Virus record (IMG/VR): IMGVR_UViG_3300032738_000111
Location: 1-64,000 of that record
From: a virus
Direction: 5' to 3' (one strand)
Length of the DNA: 64,000 bases
Below the pieces are notes generated by a model. That model was not told the origin of the DNA and searched no databases. It was given only the letters and a program-made list of their open reading frames with translations. A program made the translations under genes and the position numbers. Shown in pieces: positions 20,381 to 54,026 of the stretch. The first letter of the stretch is position 1, and the number at the start of each line of letters is the position of its first letter.

Positions 20381-20455
20381 TGGTGAGGGCAATTGGATTT
20401 GAACCAATGACCGGCCGCTTATGAGGCGGCTGCTCTTCCGCTAAGCTATGCCCTC
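20381..20455 (-). tRNA. tRNA with CAT anticodon (likely tRNA-Ile2, otherwise elongator Met), encoded CCA
   Basis: GAGGGCA-TA-GCTTAGCGGAAGAGC-A-GCCGC-CTCATAA-GCGGC-CGGTC-ATTGG-TTCAAAT-CCAAT-TGCCCTC-ACCA full cloverleaf. Confidence 0.92.
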
Positions 20456-34622: not shown

Positions 34623-35056
34623 CCAGCCACTCCCTTTCGCGCGGCCTCAAGCTCCGCTTCGGTAATCTGCCACAACCCCTGCCGACCGCGCATAGGTATC
34701 GGTTCGTCGAAGGACTGCGGGTTCTCCAGTAGCCAGTGCCACATGCCCCCAGCAAGTTCGGCCCACTCGCTGTCGCTCGGCCAGATACATCCCACAAGTT
34801 CAACCTGGCCGATGATTGCGCCGCGCCACGCCTTCGCATGACAAAGGGTCTGAATCAATCGGAGGTCCCATTTCCTTGTGTCGTTATTGGCATACTCTAA
34901 CAACTTGTCGAAGCCATCAGTGCTCCACTGCTTGCCCGCATGTATCAGCAATGGACCTCTGTAGTGTATCCTTCGAGAACGATTCTCCACGTCCTTGATA
35001 CCGTGGATTATCAGACTTGCAAAGGGTTGGTGGACAGTCAGGCACTTATGAATCAT
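34619..35056 (-). CDS. ASCH domain protein
   Basis: LTVHQPFASLI.HGIKDVENR...YRGPLLIHAG...PIPMRGRQGLW. Confidence 0.9.
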   Translation of the reverse strand: MIHKCLTVHQPFASLIIHGIKDVENRSRRIHYRGPLLIHAGKQWSTDGFDKLLEYANNDTRKWDLRLIQTLCHAKAWRGAIIGQVELVGCIWPSDSEWAELAGGMWHWLLENPQSFDEPIPMRGRQGLWQITEAELEAARKGVAG

Positions 35057-35382
35057 CCCGCACCATCCTCTCCGACGCCCGCCGCCGCGAGGTCCCCGTA
35101 GTACAGTTGCGCGGCCTCGCGACGAAGGGTCAACAGTTTTGCCTCCGTGTTCTCGTGCAAGGCGTCACACATGAGCGCGGTACTTCTCACTGTTATGCCA
35201 GGTACGGTTTCGAGACGTTTCGCGTTCCACCAATACTCGCCGACAAACCCATCCTTGCGTTTGTACACACGAGCCCAGGGGCAGCAATGGCATTCGCCGA
35301 AACGCCTCTCCCAGTAACCACTTCCATCATCCTCAAGCTGGTGGAATACCCACCCTTCCGGCAGCTTCTCAAGATTAGTCAT
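35053..35382 (-). CDS. Hypothetical protein (LPEGW family)
   Basis: MTNLEKLPEGW...WARV. Confidence 0.55.
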   Translation of the reverse strand: MTNLEKLPEGWVFHQLEDDGSGYWERRFGECHCCPWARVYKRKDGFVGEYWWNAKRLETVPGITVRSTALMCDALHENTEAKLLTLRREAAQLYYGDLAAAGVGEDGAG

Positions 35383-35384
35383 AT

Positions 35385-36698
35385 TCAATCCCCTTTCAGT
35401 GTTGCGCGACAGGATGTAAACAATTCCGATGACTGAGAAGCTAGTGTCTCCCCTTGCGTTTGAGGTTCCTGCTTCATCAGACCTAACAACTGTATCGGCC
35501 CTCCACAGGCTTCGGATTCGGCGGGACACCCGCCTATCTGTTGCAAACCTCTGTTCAATATGTTTCGAGCCGCGTTTACGTCACGGCCAATGCTTAGTCC
35601 GCACTCAGGACAGTCATGGACTCTGTCCCACAGGCGCTTCGGTACAATCGCCCAGCACTGCGAACAGGCCTGGGTAGTCCCTCGCGCAGGCACTCTCACT
35701 AACTGCGCACCTAGTTCTTCGCACTTATACTCAAGCATCTCGACGAGCTTGCTCCAGCCCGCGTCGGCAATGCTCTTGTGCAGGCCCTTCTCCCGTTGCC
35801 CTCCGCCAGCTTCCTTCTGCAATAGGTCGCCAGCTATTCTGTCCTCTACGGCTATCAGGTCATACTGCTCGACGAGTTGACGGGACAGCGTGTGCAGAAA
35901 GGCCTCCCGCGCATTCGCCACATCATGCTCGGCACGTGCTACTTTCAGCGCCGCCTTTTTCCGGTTTGCCGAACCCTTCTTTGCCCTTGCCAGCCGACGC
36001 GCCAGTTTCGTCCGCTTCTTCTGCGCATTCCGATAGTATTGCGGTGGCTTCACTTCTTCGCCTTCCGAGGTGGTAATCAACGACGAGCAGCCTACGTCGA
36101 TGCCAATACAACGCAACGGCTCCACTATGGGCGGTGCCGGTATCCCGTTGTCGCCTGCCAAGGCAACATACCATTTCCCGGCAACGCGCCGGACAGAGAG
36201 GGCCTTCACGTCGAGGTTGGGCGGCACTTTTGGACGGGCGTTGATCAAGCCAATTTTAGGCACATTGACCTTGCCGTCGCGCCACTGCTCCACATCGCCC
36301 GCGTCGCGCGATATGAGATTCGGGGTATCGCGCTTTGGCCTTGGATACCCAGGCCGCTCGCCGTTCTTACAGCGCCGGAAGAATGCCTGGAAAGCAACGT
36401 CGAGGTTCTTCAGTACGCCTCGCGCAAAGACACTCGGCACAGCCCTCAATTCAGGATATTGTTTGCGGGACTTCGCTAACTGTGCGCATTGATCAATGTA
36501 GGATATTGACCACTTCTTCTTGATGGCGGAGGCGTCTTCATTTGGCTTCTCATCCAACTCCCGCTTGCAACCCTCCCACGCCTGCTCGCGGTCAAGCAGT
36601 GAGTAGTTCCAGAGGCGGCGGCAGATTTCCATCCATGCCAACAACTGAGCTTCCTGCGCCTTCGTCGGATATAGGCGATACTTCTGGGCGCGTATCAT
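35385..36698 (-). CDS. tnpB: TnpB RNA-guided endonuclease (IS200/IS605 family), no TnpA
   Basis: KYRLYPT, GYPRPK, GIDVG (RuvC-I), IAVED (RuvC-II), CSQC..CPEC zinc finger, RDVNAARNI (RuvC-III). Confidence 0.93.
   Translation of the reverse strand: MIRAQKYRLYPTKAQEAQLLAWMEICRRLWNYSLLDREQAWEGCKRELDEKPNEDASAIKKKWSISYIDQCAQLAKSRKQYPELRAVPSVFARGVLKNLDVAFQAFFRRCKNGERPGYPRPKRDTPNLISRDAGDVEQWRDGKVNVPKIGLINARPKVPPNLDVKALSVRRVAGKWYVALAGDNGIPAPPIVEPLRCIGIDVGCSSLITTSEGEEVKPPQYYRNAQKKRTKLARRLARAKKGSANRKKAALKVARAEHDVANAREAFLHTLSRQLVEQYDLIAVEDRIAGDLLQKEAGGGQREKGLHKSIADAGWSKLVEMLEYKCEELGAQLVRVPARGTTQACSQCWAIVPKRLWDRVHDCPECGLSIGRDVNAARNILNRGLQQIGGCPAESEACGGPIQLLGLMKQEPQTQGETLASQSSELFTSCRATLKGD
35424..35540 (-). 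ncRNA. Putative TnpB omega-RNA 3' scaffold and guide
   Basis: GCCTGTGGAG...GAAGCAGGAA...GGGGAGACAC. The loop GTGTC of hairpin GGCGG/CCGCC is complementary to the terminal GACAC. Confidence 0.6.
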
Positions 36699-36857
36699 CA
36701 CAAGCTCCAGAATCAGATAGCCCGCCCACTTTCGATTGCGCTTCGTCCGCAGAGACGCAGTGCCTTCGATAGATGGACGGGCTATAATGAGTCGCACAAA
36801 AAGCACTGCTGACTCTGCGGATACTCTGATTATAGAGGTTGCTGGCACTGGAGTCAA
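36699..36857 (-). promoter_or_regulatory. Near-consensus promoter plus structured leader upstream of tnpB
   Basis: TTGACT-17-TATAAT; TCCGCAGAG/CTCTGCGGA, GCAGTGC/GCACTGC and ATAGCCCGTCCAT/GTGGGCGGGCTAT pairings. Confidence 0.75.
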
Positions 36858-36864
36858 GGCCTTT

Positions 36865-37491
36865 CTACGGGAGTTTGTTCTGGCGGTATGCTTCTTCGAT
36901 GACTTGCTCGTGCCGTGAATGCGCTTGCCATATCCGACCGTGCTTCTGCGTCCGGTGCATGTATCCAATGGAGCGGCCTGGCAGCCAGTCGTGATAGCGG
37001 CGAGGGTAAAACACCCTCTTCGCTACAGCGTATCCGCGCAAGCCCCACTCGTAGTAACCATGCCACTCTTTGCAGTGAGCGCGAATGTTCGCCTTCGGGT
37101 CTGTGCTGCCACCTGGACGATCCGTAGGCCCCGCGCATCCATTCGTCGCCCTGTAGTGACATCGCAGGCCGATACCTGCCGCGCAATACGCCAATCCCAT
37201 TTGCCAGTCTGCGCCCATGCCGAGTCGCTCGTATTCACTCACAAAGAATTCGCAGAATGGCAGAAATCCGCTGCTTGGATAAAGTTCCCGTACAATCAGC
37301 CGACACTTAGCGACGCGCAACGCATGGACTGAGACCATCGGCCCCGCCTCGCTCACCCTCTGCGCCCTCGGCTCCGGCATGGCGGGTAGTTCCTGCGGCT
37401 CCGCCTGCGTGTGCAGGCATACAAGCCAGACTATTGCGGCGGCGACGAGGACCCAGAACAAGCCTCTGTACGGGTTGCGGTCAGGTATCAT
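36865..37491 (-). CDS. Membrane-anchored protein, possible degenerate lytic-transglycosylase fold
   Basis: N-terminal TM; DPKANIRA resembles the SLT motif, but no catalytic ES is visible. Confidence 0.45.
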   Translation of the reverse strand: MIPDRNPYRGLFWVLVAAAIVWLVCLHTQAEPQELPAMPEPRAQRVSEAGPMVSVHALRVAKCRLIVRELYPSSGFLPFCEFFVSEYERLGMGADWQMGLAYCAAGIGLRCHYRATNGCAGPTDRPGGSTDPKANIRAHCKEWHGYYEWGLRGYAVAKRVFYPRRYHDWLPGRSIGYMHRTQKHGRIWQAHSRHEQVIEEAYRQNKLP

Positions 37492-40023: not shown

Positions 40024-40440
40024 TCACTCCTCGTCCTTCGGATTGTCGCGCGTGTCGAAGTTCCCGTCCACGCGCAGGTACTCCTCCACCAGTTTCACCT
40101 TCATGCGCTCTTGGTAATCTTCATTGGCGCGGATGGCGGCACAGACCATTTCATCGAAGAGTTCTGGGATACGACCACTATTCGCGAGTTCCATGACAGC
40201 CATTATATCCCCGCTCCTGCCGTCCCGATACGACTCTTCGACGATCCGCAGATAGAACACGTAGAGACTTCGCTGGTTGTAGCATTCGTCAAAGACTTCC
40301 AGCATCTCCACGGCACCGATGCCAAGCCCGTCGCAGAGGTCGGCCAAGTCCATCTCAGCCAGCTTGCCCTCCACGTTGTCATTCGCGTAGTCCATCGCGC
40401 GGTTGCCCTTGTCGTCATCAGGATCGCCGGGATGTCTCAT
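40024..40440 (-). CDS. Acidic hypothetical protein, paralogue family F
   Basis: DPDDDKGNRAMDYANDNVEGKLAEMDL...AAIRANEDYQ. Confidence 0.7.
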   Translation of the reverse strand: MRHPGDPDDDKGNRAMDYANDNVEGKLAEMDLADLCDGLGIGAVEMLEVFDECYNQRSLYVFYLRIVEESYRDGRSGDIMAVMELANSGRIPELFDEMVCAAIRANEDYQERMKVKLVEEYLRVDGNFDTRDNPKDEE

Positions 40441-47182: not shown

Positions 47183-47527
47183 TTAGTGTTCCCGTTCTCT
47201 CGCTCTTTCCTCGGCCCTGTCCTGCTCGCCCCAGTCCTCCGTCTCGCCCGCGCGGTGCTTCTCTTGGAGCTTCTCGGACATGCGCTGCTGGTAGGTCTCG
47301 TTGGCGCGGATGGCGGCGGCAATGTGTTGCTGGAATGCTACTGATAGTTCTAGCCGCCAATCACACACAAAGTTCTCCATTTCGAACAGTAGGTCAGAGT
47401 CGCTGATGTCAAGTTCCTCGCAGAGTTCAACCAAGTCCATCTCGGCCAGCTTCGCCTCCACGTTGTCGGTAGCGTAGTCCAAAGCCCTGTTGCCTGCGTC
47501 GTCGTGCGGGTCATTAGTGCCGGTCAT
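47183..47527 (-). CDS. Acidic hypothetical protein, paralogue family F
   Basis: DPHDDAGNRALDYATDNVEAKLAEMDL...AAIRANETYQ. Confidence 0.7.
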   Translation of the reverse strand: MTGTNDPHDDAGNRALDYATDNVEAKLAEMDLVELCEELDISDSDLLFEMENFVCDWRLELSVAFQQHIAAAIRANETYQQRMSEKLQEKHRAGETEDWGEQDRAEERAREREH

Positions 47528-52125: not shown

Positions 52126-52713
52126 TCAGTCGAACACATTGATGTCATAGGTGCAACCGTCGCGCTCCACATCGCCCGCCGCTGTGGTATAGGTCACAAG
52201 TATCTTTACCCGCTTCACACCTGGCCGCGTTGTAACCCCGCTGGCCGCAGTGATACCATAGCTGGCAACGCCACTGCTGATAGCCATAGCCACTGGCCCG
52301 ACGATTGCGTAGCCGGGCAACCGGAATGTATCACCGGCTGCGGGCGTCACTGGCAACGGAATCCCCGTAGTCGCAAGGGTGAAGGTTCCGTCGCTGACAA
52401 AGCTAGTGACCATCCACGCCCCGTCCTTGAGCGCAGTACCGGAAGTGAACTGAAGCATCATGTACTTCCAGAGGTCATTAGCCTGGTCGAAATCGCTATC
52501 AACTACCGTCGTGCTCGTGGCGCTATCAACGGTGCCAGTGACTTCCTCGTCAGCGTCATATATCCAAATCTCAGCGGAGGTTATATTGAGCTTCGCTTCA
52601 CCCGCCAGTGATAGGTCGGTACTACTGCGTATCCTCTGCATCAGTTGCAGGCGGATAGTCTTGTCGCCATTGACGGGTATGTGGAGCGCGAACTTTGAGC
52701 CTTGGTCGGCCAT
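52126..52713 (-). CDS. Putative virion structural protein
   Basis: Beta-rich, GTVDSATSTTVVDS..NDLW..LQFTSG module; lies in the tail cluster. Confidence 0.6.
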   Translation of the reverse strand: MADQGSKFALHIPVNGDKTIRLQLMQRIRSSTDLSLAGEAKLNITSAEIWIYDADEEVTGTVDSATSTTVVDSDFDQANDLWKYMMLQFTSGTALKDGAWMVTSFVSDGTFTLATTGIPLPVTPAAGDTFRLPGYAIVGPVAMAISSGVASYGITAASGVTTRPGVKRVKILVTYTTAAGDVERDGCTYDINVFD

Positions 52714-54026
52714 TAGTTATCACTCACATCGGCAGGCTGGATTGTACCTCTTGCGTTTGCGGCGCGGACAAGTTCCCAAATCTCAGCAAACAGAACTGCG
52801 TCGTGGCCATCGGCGGCGCAGATAATACCTCGCAGGTCGGCGGGGGAAATTGCGTCACGGACATCGCCGATACTGATAGCGCTGCGGGCATCGGCGACGA
52901 GGATTATATTGCAGGCGTCGCCTATGCGGATGACATGCCGAATGTCTGCGGATAGGACTGCGTCTCGTGCATCGCGGGCGCTGAGAACATCCCACGCCTC
53001 GGCGGGGAGCACTGCGTCGCGAGCGTCACGAATAGCAGCTTCAGAGATGAGTTCGGTAACTGAGGGTAGCGTCACTACGATGTTCGTGACGCCGGCCTGG
53101 ATATAGGCACCCGTGATAACTGCTACCGCTGGCAACGAGGCTACAACATCTAGGACCGCAGCCGCGACCGTTGCCCCGCCAGTACCAGCGGCGGTCGGAG
53201 CGCTTGCGGTGATAGTTGAGGTGGCTGCTGCAATCGCTGCCCCGCCTGCTATACTAGCCAACTGCGCGGACGCTATAAGCTCGGCTACACTGGCGGATAT
53301 AATCGCCCCGGTAATCACGCCGGCTGTCGGCGCGGAGGCCGTCAGACTACTGGCCGCCGCAGCGATAGTGGCTCCGCCGGTAGCAGTGACGGTCGGTGCA
53401 GAACTGAGCAGGTCAGCAACTGATGCTGGAACGATAGCCCCGGTTGTTATACCCGGCGCGGGCACAGAACTGAGCAAGTCAGTTACCGATGCGGCGACAA
53501 TGGCTCCAGTCGTCAAGCTGGGTATTGGCGCGGAACTGAGTAGGTCGGTTACTGACGCAGCAATGACAGCGCCGGTCGTCAAGCTGGGTGTCAGCACAGA
53601 ACTCAACAGGTCAGTTACCGACGCCGCGATGATAGCTCCGGTCGTCAGGCTAGGCGCGGGCACAGAACTGAGCAGCTCGGCGACCGATACTGGAATAGTA
53701 GCCCCGCCGGTTGCAGTAACCGTCGGCACCGAACTCAACAGGTCGGCTACTGATACGGCGACAATAGCTCCACCAATTGCGGTAGCTGTTGGCATAGAAC
53801 TAAGCAAGTCGGTCACTGATGCGGCGACCGTAGCCCCACCTGTCGCAACAGCAGTCGGCGCGGACGCAAGCAGGTCGGCAACCGATACAGATACAACAGC
53901 CCCGCCAGTCGCAATAGCACTTGGTGCGGATGCTGTCAACTCAGCTGCCGACGCATCAATCTCCACGTTGCCTACCGCAGGCCCGGCATTGAATTGCGCG
54001 CCATTGAATCCCGCGTCATTGAACAT
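52713..54026 (-). CDS. Ala/Ser/Thr/Val-rich repeat protein (putative tail filament/fibre)
   Basis: About 14 x 22-aa repeats followed by about 11 x 9-aa repeats. Confidence 0.7.
   Translation of the reverse strand: MFNDAGFNGAQFNAGPAVGNVEIDASAAELTASAPSAIATGGAVVSVSVADLLASAPTAVATGGATVAASVTDLLSSMPTATAIGGAIVAVSVADLLSSVPTVTATGGATIPVSVAELLSSVPAPSLTTGAIIAASVTDLLSSVLTPSLTTGAVIAASVTDLLSSAPIPSLTTGAIVAASVTDLLSSVPAPGITTGAIVPASVADLLSSAPTVTATGGATIAAAASSLTASAPTAGVITGAIISASVAELIASAQLASIAGGAAIAAATSTITASAPTAAGTGGATVAAAVLDVVASLPAVAVITGAYIQAGVTNIVVTLPSVTELISEAAIRDARDAVLPAEAWDVLSARDARDAVLSADIRHVIRIGDACNIILVADARSAISIGDVRDAISPADLRGIICAADGHDAVLFAEIWELVRAANARGTIQPADVSDN
53036..53960. repeat. Degenerate 66-bp tandem coding repeat
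   Basis: Unit AASVTDLLSSxPxxxxTxGAxx; gaactgagcagg-like words recur at 66-bp period. Confidence 0.85.

Follow-up and report, generated by a model that had tools for sequence, protein, structure and literature searches.

The DNA analyzed here, referred to as the window, comprises the first 64,000 nucleotides of a 78,240-bp virus record in IMG/VR (IMGVR_UViG_3300032738_000111) that carries direct terminal repeats and is rated 100% complete. On the minus strand, between two phage genes, lies a module of ~1.45 kb (36857 to about 35408) built around a tnpB-type gene for an RNA-guided nuclease; a promoter and a structured leader precede the gene, and an omegaRNA-like guide-RNA scaffold with a single guide overlaps its 3' end (Table 1). 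The upstream phage gene ends with a stop codon at 36867–36865, and the downstream gene begins with an ATG at 35382. Close relatives of the nuclease, at 79–84% protein identity, were found on a viral contig (L002/L008) and on the metagenome contigs L005, L006, L007, L009, L010 and L011. They occupy at least five different contexts, with L002 located on an IMG/VR phage contig after a tape-measure gene, and across these differing contexts the module is conserved from the -35 box to the GACAC motif at the end of the scaffold.

Table 1. Features of the tnpB module, with positions counted in the window.
Feature	Positions	Strand	Details
Sigma-70-type promoter	36829–36857	-	TTGACT 36857–36852, 17-nt spacer, TATAAT 36834–36829
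Structured 5' leader hairpin	36717–36785	-	Closing stem AGCCCGUCC / GGGCGGGCU; between promoter and ribosome-binding site
tnpB-type RNA-guided nuclease gene	35385–36698	-	437 codons; ATG at 36698, stop at 35385
omegaRNA-like scaffold, 94 nt	35444–35537	-	From ATAGG to GAGACAC; lies within the open reading frame, at its 3' end
Stem 1 loop GUGUC, 5' half of pseudoknot	35525–35529	-	Pairs with GACAC in 12/12 copies
Repeat-equivalent 3' module	35444–35469	-	GGAACC-(CCUC hairpin GGGG)-AGACAC; includes GACAC 35448–35444
Guide	35408–35443	-	Abuts the scaffold; 36-nt length assumed from the 32–36-nt spacers of relatives

The product of the gene is a TnpB, with the helix-turn-helix/WED, RuvC and zinc-ribbon (TNB) architecture of that family recognized over curated cut-offs. 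It matches the Pfam families HTH_OrfB_IS605, OrfB_IS605 and Cas12f1-like_TNB and reaches 251 bits with the NCBIfam model guided_TnpB (cut-off 100), and its scores with the NCBIfam Cas12f2 and C2c8 models are far under their cut-offs. The PADLOC profiles Cas12u2, Cas12u4 and Cas12f match the protein at E values of 1e-54 to 1e-59, and its best natural solved relative by sequence is ISDra2 TnpB (8bf8/8h1j, E 1.8e-36). The RuvC residues D201 (36098–36096), E285 (35846–35844) and D373 (35582–35580) are all intact, as is the zinc finger formed by C345, C348, C363 and C366; a first-pass annotation of this DNA, made from the letters alone, had claimed as much, and the alignment agrees, since these residues occupy columns that are invariant among 13 homologues. 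The ratio of nonsynonymous to synonymous substitution rates (dN/dS) is about 0.12 for tnpB against L002 and L005, which shows purifying selection on the product and argues for a working protein. The conserved core spans residues 1 to about 390, and the last ~31 residues are not conserved. This 31-codon tail reads through the scaffold and the guide (35385–35480) to end 2 nt ahead of the downstream ATG, and it exists because a 1-nt indel shifts the frame relative to relatives of 406–408 aa.

The promoter begins 8 nt past the stop codon of the upstream gene and agrees with the consensus at 11 of 12 positions, so the near-consensus TTGACT/TATAAT promoter of the first-pass annotation is found where it had been placed; it is the sole promoter-like site within the 2.3 kb scanned (35000–37300). 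The same arrangement, TTGACT-17-TATACT, occurs in the relative L006 around a spacer of unrelated sequence, and for this reason we assign the promoter to the tnpB module on comparative grounds. Retention of the layout while the spacer sequence differs suggests selection for expression. Between the promoter and the start of tnpB lies a leader of 125 nt that folds at -52.4 kcal/mol (z -3.85), a stability equaled by none of 200 shuffles. The closing stem of its hairpin (GCCCGUCC/GGGCGGGC) is kept in L002/L007 and in L006, with a compensatory change from G-C to A-U in the latter. In relatives the hairpin is followed by a U-rich, terminator-like tract, of which the window has a weaker version, and the structure may be an attenuator, a terminator or a relic of an IS200-like left end. 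The ribosome-binding site of tnpB, GGAG, is located at 36708–36705 on the minus strand.

The predicted scaffold consists of three nested stems, a terminal hairpin and a pseudoknot. In 12 aligned copies the pairing is kept in 99.3% of cells, compared with 40–51% in slid controls, and five pairs show compensatory changes. A covariance model built from related copies gave a single hit in the window, at 105.5 bits, and weaker matches at the 3' ends of distant TnpB genes; because of the latter matches, the scaffold RNA is, on comparative evidence, a genuine omegaRNA homologue. Four bases of the pseudoknot loop, GUGU, never vary, and the fifth is C or U, giving a G-U wobble in half of the 12 scaffolds, so that the GUGUY/GACAC helix is essentially invariant and its conservation comes without covariation proof. 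The first-pass annotation had set the scaffold end at GACAC (35448–35444) from its complementarity to GTGTC (35529–35525) and had described the right-end hairpin as reduced to CCTC/GGGG. All three points hold: conservation ends exactly after GAGACAC in 19 related copies, with unrelated sequence beyond; the two motifs pair in all aligned scaffolds; and the terminal hairpin (35465–35462/35453–35450) has a longer CCTTACGCGCGC...AAGG version in relatives. We place the 5' end at 35537 because stand-alone copies outside any open reading frame (ORF), driven by promoters of their own, begin their similarity at the corresponding ATAGG; in L006, a near-consensus promoter, TTGACA-17-TATACT, ends 7 nt ahead of it.

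The scaffold of the window appears to be a mosaic. Its 5' two-thirds are 91% identical to a stand-alone scaffold of L005 and its 3' module is 96% identical to a stand-alone single-guide scaffold (L010:1943–1968), compared with only 76–79% identity between the window scaffold and those that relatives carry within the gene. Both the mosaic and the shifted ORF tail would be explained if the 3' end of tnpB had once been exchanged with a stand-alone scaffold.

C or T directly follows GACAC in each of the 24 unique guides, and positions 2–4 are mixed. Because of this constant pyrimidine, the conserved unit is probably GACACY, with T at 35443, and the guide probably becomes variable from 35442 onward (AGCTTCTCAGTCATCGGAAT...). 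The first-pass annotation had begun the guide at 35443; its boundary after GACAC stands, and the start of the variable part probably moves to 35442.

The close relatives place this single-guide module in a wider series. In L006, L009, L010 and L011, the 32 nt that end the scaffold (GGAACCTTACGCGCGCGCGCGCAAGGAGACAC) are repeated every 64–68 nt, with unique spacers of 32–36 nt in between, to form arrays of up to seven units. Those downstream of the gene take their first repeat from the in-gene scaffold and those upstream, taking the four relatives together, are placed behind a stand-alone scaffold, so that every array opens with a repeat belonging to a complete scaffold. The repeat thus derives from the 3' right-end RNA segment, as is characteristic of TranC (transposon-CRISPR intermediates). 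No cas1 or cas2 was seen near the arrays of relatives, all of which are on short contigs. L010 and L011 encode an identical nuclease protein next to different arrays (L010:204–431 and L011:501–796): L011 has two extra scaffold-proximal spacers, and L010 has one spacer that is absent from L011. This difference suggests polarized spacer gain and internal loss without visible cas1/cas2. A tracr-like RNA and a CRISPR RNA (crRNA) could pair through the GACAC/GUGUY pseudoknot and 2 bp of stem 2.

The short-hairpin unit (25–26 nt, CCUC...GGGG) never forms arrays, whether in the window, in L002, in L009 (minus strand) or in the third scaffold of L010. It also occurs as orphan scaffolds in the phage fragments L159 and L163. 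These orphans, each with one guide, score 99–101 bits and are located at L159:2440–2532 (minus strand), L163:3374–3466 (minus strand) and L163:11899–11991 (plus strand), the two L163 copies lying 8.5 kb apart. No tnpB is visible in L159 or L163, which are records of only 26–27% completeness, so that the nuclease gene may lie elsewhere. The 2.7-kb locus of L010 contains three full scaffolds (L010:136–1968): an upstream one with a 4-repeat array, the in-gene one with a 3-repeat array, and a third, short-hairpin one with a single guide. Among more distant relatives, L012 and L014 (52% identity) each show one additional scaffold-like copy ahead of the gene (L012:1791–1880 and L014:4698–4787), and L015 (49% identity) has a different 28-nt repeat that occurs twice, 53 nt apart, after the gene (L015:1271–1351).

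Because the short-hairpin single-guide form is gene-fused in the window, stand-alone in relatives, and orphan and promoter-driven in L159 and L163, we considered whether guide and nuclease are traded separately among phages, with this scaffold as a mobile guide cassette. We regard the idea as improbable. If it were true, the mosaic scaffold of the window would be a product of such exchange, and with an orphan scaffold one phage could redirect, or make use of, a TnpB-type nuclease encoded by a phage infecting the same cell or by the host.

In the phylogenetic tree, the window falls with L002, P0003 and L005/L006 in a subclade (support 99/97) inside an eight-member clade (100/99), the other half of which (L009, L010/L011) is entirely array-bearing. 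Arrays with the same repeat are present in both subclades and, since both halves of the clade use that repeat, their common ancestor probably had arrays; the single-guide, short-hairpin form of the window would then probably be a secondary reduction. The tnpB gene is therefore better read, from its relatives, as a member of a TranC/type V-U-like clade than as an insertion sequence (IS) copy that decayed in place. This modifies the first-pass view of a domesticated nuclease: the intact nuclease and the lack of a transposase and of IS ends stand, and the route to them would be a TranC/type V-like lineage. The window holds a transposase-less TnpB of a TranC-like clade. It is not itself filed as TranC or CRISPR, because it has no array.

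A degenerate second repeat after the guide did not reach significance (7–8% of shuffles score equally), and no second repeat-equivalent unit of a CRISPR-like array is present in the window or in the rest of the phage. The complete phage has no Cas1. The guide itself has no other match in its own phage beyond chance level (3 mismatches in 16), which extends to the whole phage the earlier observation that no full match occurs elsewhere in the window. Searches of IMG/VR with a guide 20-mer gave no match, and a 16-mer gave 61 hits that represent about 17 unrelated sequence families, none extending past 17 nt. Against GenBank phages only chance matches were obtained (E 0.4–5), and against PLSDB plasmids none. 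In 401 genomes of Planctomycetota, a guessed host, there were three hits at two mismatches compared with four control hits; the three have a codon-structured look and lie in unrelated contexts. No guide target was thus found in the phage, IMG/VR, GenBank phages, plasmids or the 401 Planctomycetota genomes, a set that leaves out metagenomes and the full genome collection. Spacers of the relatives likewise had no match outside their own loci in 1 Mb of fetched loci and the window phage, and two of them had none in IMG/VR. The first-pass annotation had proposed to search the guide for targets sharing a 5' target-adjacent motif (TAM); since no protospacer appeared in the searched collections, neither a TAM nor a protospacer-adjacent motif (PAM) could be derived. 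Multi-copy distant relatives did not supply a TAM either, as the right ends of the Paracoccaceae IS elements are sharp and their left ends too complex to read.

With fair, though not high, confidence we read the locus as a self-contained, transposase-less RNA-guided nuclease module of a TranC-like lineage that probably serves as a fixed-guide weapon or exclusion device. The sigma-70-type promoter of the module would transcribe leader, tnpB, the 94-nt scaffold and one guide in a single transcript, and TnpB would bind the guide RNA and process it from the tnpB mRNA. By analogy with ISDra2 TnpB, which also underlies the proposed trimming, the nuclease would then cut DNA that matches the guide beside a 5' motif (TAM/PAM). 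The phage probably uses the module against other DNA, be it a rival phage, a mobile element or possibly the host.

Several points weigh against this reading. With no guide target in the searched collections, the function against other DNA is proposed by analogy only. The window contains no array and no remnant of a second repeat, so its CRISPR-like character comes from relatives only; those that bear arrays are on short unannotated contigs that may not come from phages, L002 being the one relative placed on a phage contig of IMG/VR. Within the subclade of the window the tree gives no firm branching order, which leaves secondary reduction as a probable reading. Finally, the TTGAC at the left boundary resembles the TAM of ISDra2 and may mark an insertion site besides acting as a -35 box, which would favor an IS.

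This last point leads to a different explanation, in which the module is an ordinary IS1341-type (tnpB-only) IS200/IS605 insertion 3' of TTGAC, the guide is simply flanking phage DNA, and TnpB keeps or homes the element by cutting tnpB-free phage copies during co-infection. We consider it unlikely, although several points speak for it. The guide abuts the scaffold directly, as at every IS605 right end, and the TTGAC (36857–36853), which is also present in L006, is near the TTGAT that constitutes the ISDra2 TAM. The left end of IS200 carries a terminator-like hairpin, which the leader hairpin and the U-tract of the relatives recall. ISDra2 TnpB is the best solved relative, the guided_TnpB cut-off is passed, and distant relatives are real multi-copy IS elements, such as one with five copies at 91–99% identity in metagenome-assembled genomes (MAGs) of Paracoccaceae. 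However, L002 lacks TTGAC at the boundary, and the nearest relatives are array-bearing rather than IS-like. No Y1 TnpA, serine recombinase or second tnpB copy was found across the complete 78,240-bp phage, in line with the first-pass statement that tnpA is missing, and the module, present as a single copy, has no recognizable IS ends and no left-end hairpin like that of the right end. The retained promoter layout, which suggests selection for expression, also speaks against a simple insertion. The first-pass annotation had named identical IS-ended copies in host genomes as the finding that would count against its own proposal; none was found, and among 185,579 species genomes, searched with patterns that fit the window protein exactly, no relative exceeded 40% identity.

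The module might instead be a non-functional relic, that is, a recently acquired gene that is intact by chance and has a guide without a target. The absence of a target from every collection searched would fit, as would the non-conserved 31-residue tail left by the indel and the reduced terminal hairpin. These points are outweighed, in our view, by the dN/dS of 0.12, the intact catalytic residues and zinc ligands, a scaffold of 105 bits in which every pair is kept, and the near-consensus promoter. Base composition agrees in full with that of the phage, four runs (all of one study) carry an identical sequence, and the short-hairpin single-guide form recurs in L002, L009, L010, L159 and L163, all of which leaves a relic with little probability. 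Less probable still is an RNA-guided regulator of the TldR type, whose complex would bind phage or host DNA and repress transcription without cutting. Domesticated TnpB repressors are known (PMC10705468) and the module is inside a phage operon, but TldRs are nuclease-dead through loss of RuvC catalytic residues, whereas D201, E285 and D373 are all intact here, and no partial guide match in the phage is better than chance.

The neighborhood of the nuclease module consists of small unknown genes together with genes for an ASCH-domain protein, a PD-(D/E)XK exonuclease and a Gp3-like protein, and these neighbors point to the early/recombination part of the phage. The GC content of the module is 0.568 compared with 0.572 for the genome, and at third codon positions (GC3) it is 0.64, equal to that of the neighboring genes. 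The phage is present with identical sequence in four public runs, all from one freshwater study, which were available as contigs only and may be the source sample. No tnpB-free relative of the phage was found, and no joint skipping the module was seen in the four runs, where contigs are uninformative on absence. Flanking phage proteins had no relatives in viral contigs, and 6 kb of the phage DNA had no match among GenBank phages. Elsewhere in the window, another 437-aa ORF (52713–54026, minus strand) was considered as a second tnpB and rejected, as it encodes a repetitive protein unrelated to TnpB; it contains at least six tandem 66-nt units that are 62–72% identical (53395–53856). Two stretches about 7.1 kb apart (40077–40425 and 47254–47512) are 72–78% identical, which suggests a pair of diverged paralogous phage genes. 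The phage also carries a tRNA gene at 20384–20455 on the minus strand (Rfam tRNA, 69.4 bits).

The concept behind this locus is already published for TranC, type V-U* and phage Cas12r systems, and no new principle is involved here. What the locus offers is a cleanly delimited, minimal specimen of a phage-borne RNA-guided nuclease (about 400 aa with a 94-nt scaffold), which makes it a compact candidate editor. Comparison fixes both ends of its RNA: promoter-driven stand-alone copies mark the 5' end, and 19 copies that carry different guides mark the 3' end. Within 16–21% protein divergence, its clade comprises a fused single guide, stand-alone guide genes, and arrays with spacer turnover. Such a shallow and well-matched series is suited to asking by what steps an omegaRNA turns into a CRISPR repeat and whether crRNAs from arrays need the 5' scaffold in trans.

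Among known systems, the predicted mode of action is, by analogy, that of an ISDra2-type TnpB–omegaRNA complex. ISDra2 TnpB (8bf8, 8h1j) has 408 aa, compared with a 437-codon ORF and a core of ~390 aa in the window, and the two share the domain order, the RuvC D-E-D triad and the C4 zinc finger. In both, the scaffold overlaps the 3' end of the gene and ends in a pseudoknot that is followed directly by the guide. Unlike ISDra2, the module of the window is a phage-borne single copy without TnpA or recognizable transposon ends, and it has its own strong promoter and a shorter scaffold (94 nt). Its close relatives have arrays and stand-alone scaffolds, of which ISDra2 has none.

TranC transposon-CRISPR intermediates were reportedly described by Jin et al. 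in Cell in 2025 (doi 10.1016/j.cell.2025.09.004). By description, the clade of the window resembles TranC and type V-U intermediates. In two reports, TranC systems are presented as transposon-CRISPR intermediates with phage examples (bioRxiv 10.64898/2026.03.27.714800; PMC13565253), and a TnpB-sized phage TranC with an array that targets phages is reported in the first of these (bioRxiv 10.64898/2026.03.27.714800). By these descriptions, the relatives of the window agree with TranC in the TnpB-sized effector, in short arrays of 32-nt repeats (32–38 nt reported for TranC), in a repeat derived from the right-end RNA and in the lack of visible cas1/cas2 nearby; carriage by a phage is likewise shared with the phage-borne CauTranC9. 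The window differs from TranC in having only a fused single guide and no array, and its relatives differ in having arrays upstream as well as downstream of the gene and several full scaffold copies per locus. LaTranC (9jfo) represents a different lineage, which aligns only over the C-terminal third (residues 253–382, E 1.7e-13).

Arrays have been proposed to arise from serial duplication of omegaRNA segments in type V-U* systems (Altae-Tran et al., PNAS 2023, PMC10691335). Type V-U*/Cas12f-like systems (PMC10691335) are similar to the clade described here in being TnpB-derived, array-only loci without adaptation genes, and the PADLOC Cas12u2, Cas12u4 and Cas12f profiles match the window protein. 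They differ in that the window protein has no REC/WED expansion and no array and passes the guided_TnpB model but fails those for Cas12f2 and C2c8. A further comparison is with Cas12r of the Thermus Lalka phages, which is aimed at rival mobile elements (bioRxiv 10.64898/2026.04.20.719267), and with the Cas12p 'hacker' nucleases (bioRxiv 10.1101/2025.01.20.633832). By description, these proteins are larger (564 and 500–700 aa, respectively) and have true arrays, and Cas12r uses a crRNA only and has a different guide polarity. Like the TnpB of the window, both are phage-carried, phage-expressed TnpB-like nucleases, for which a role in conflicts between mobile elements has been proposed or shown.

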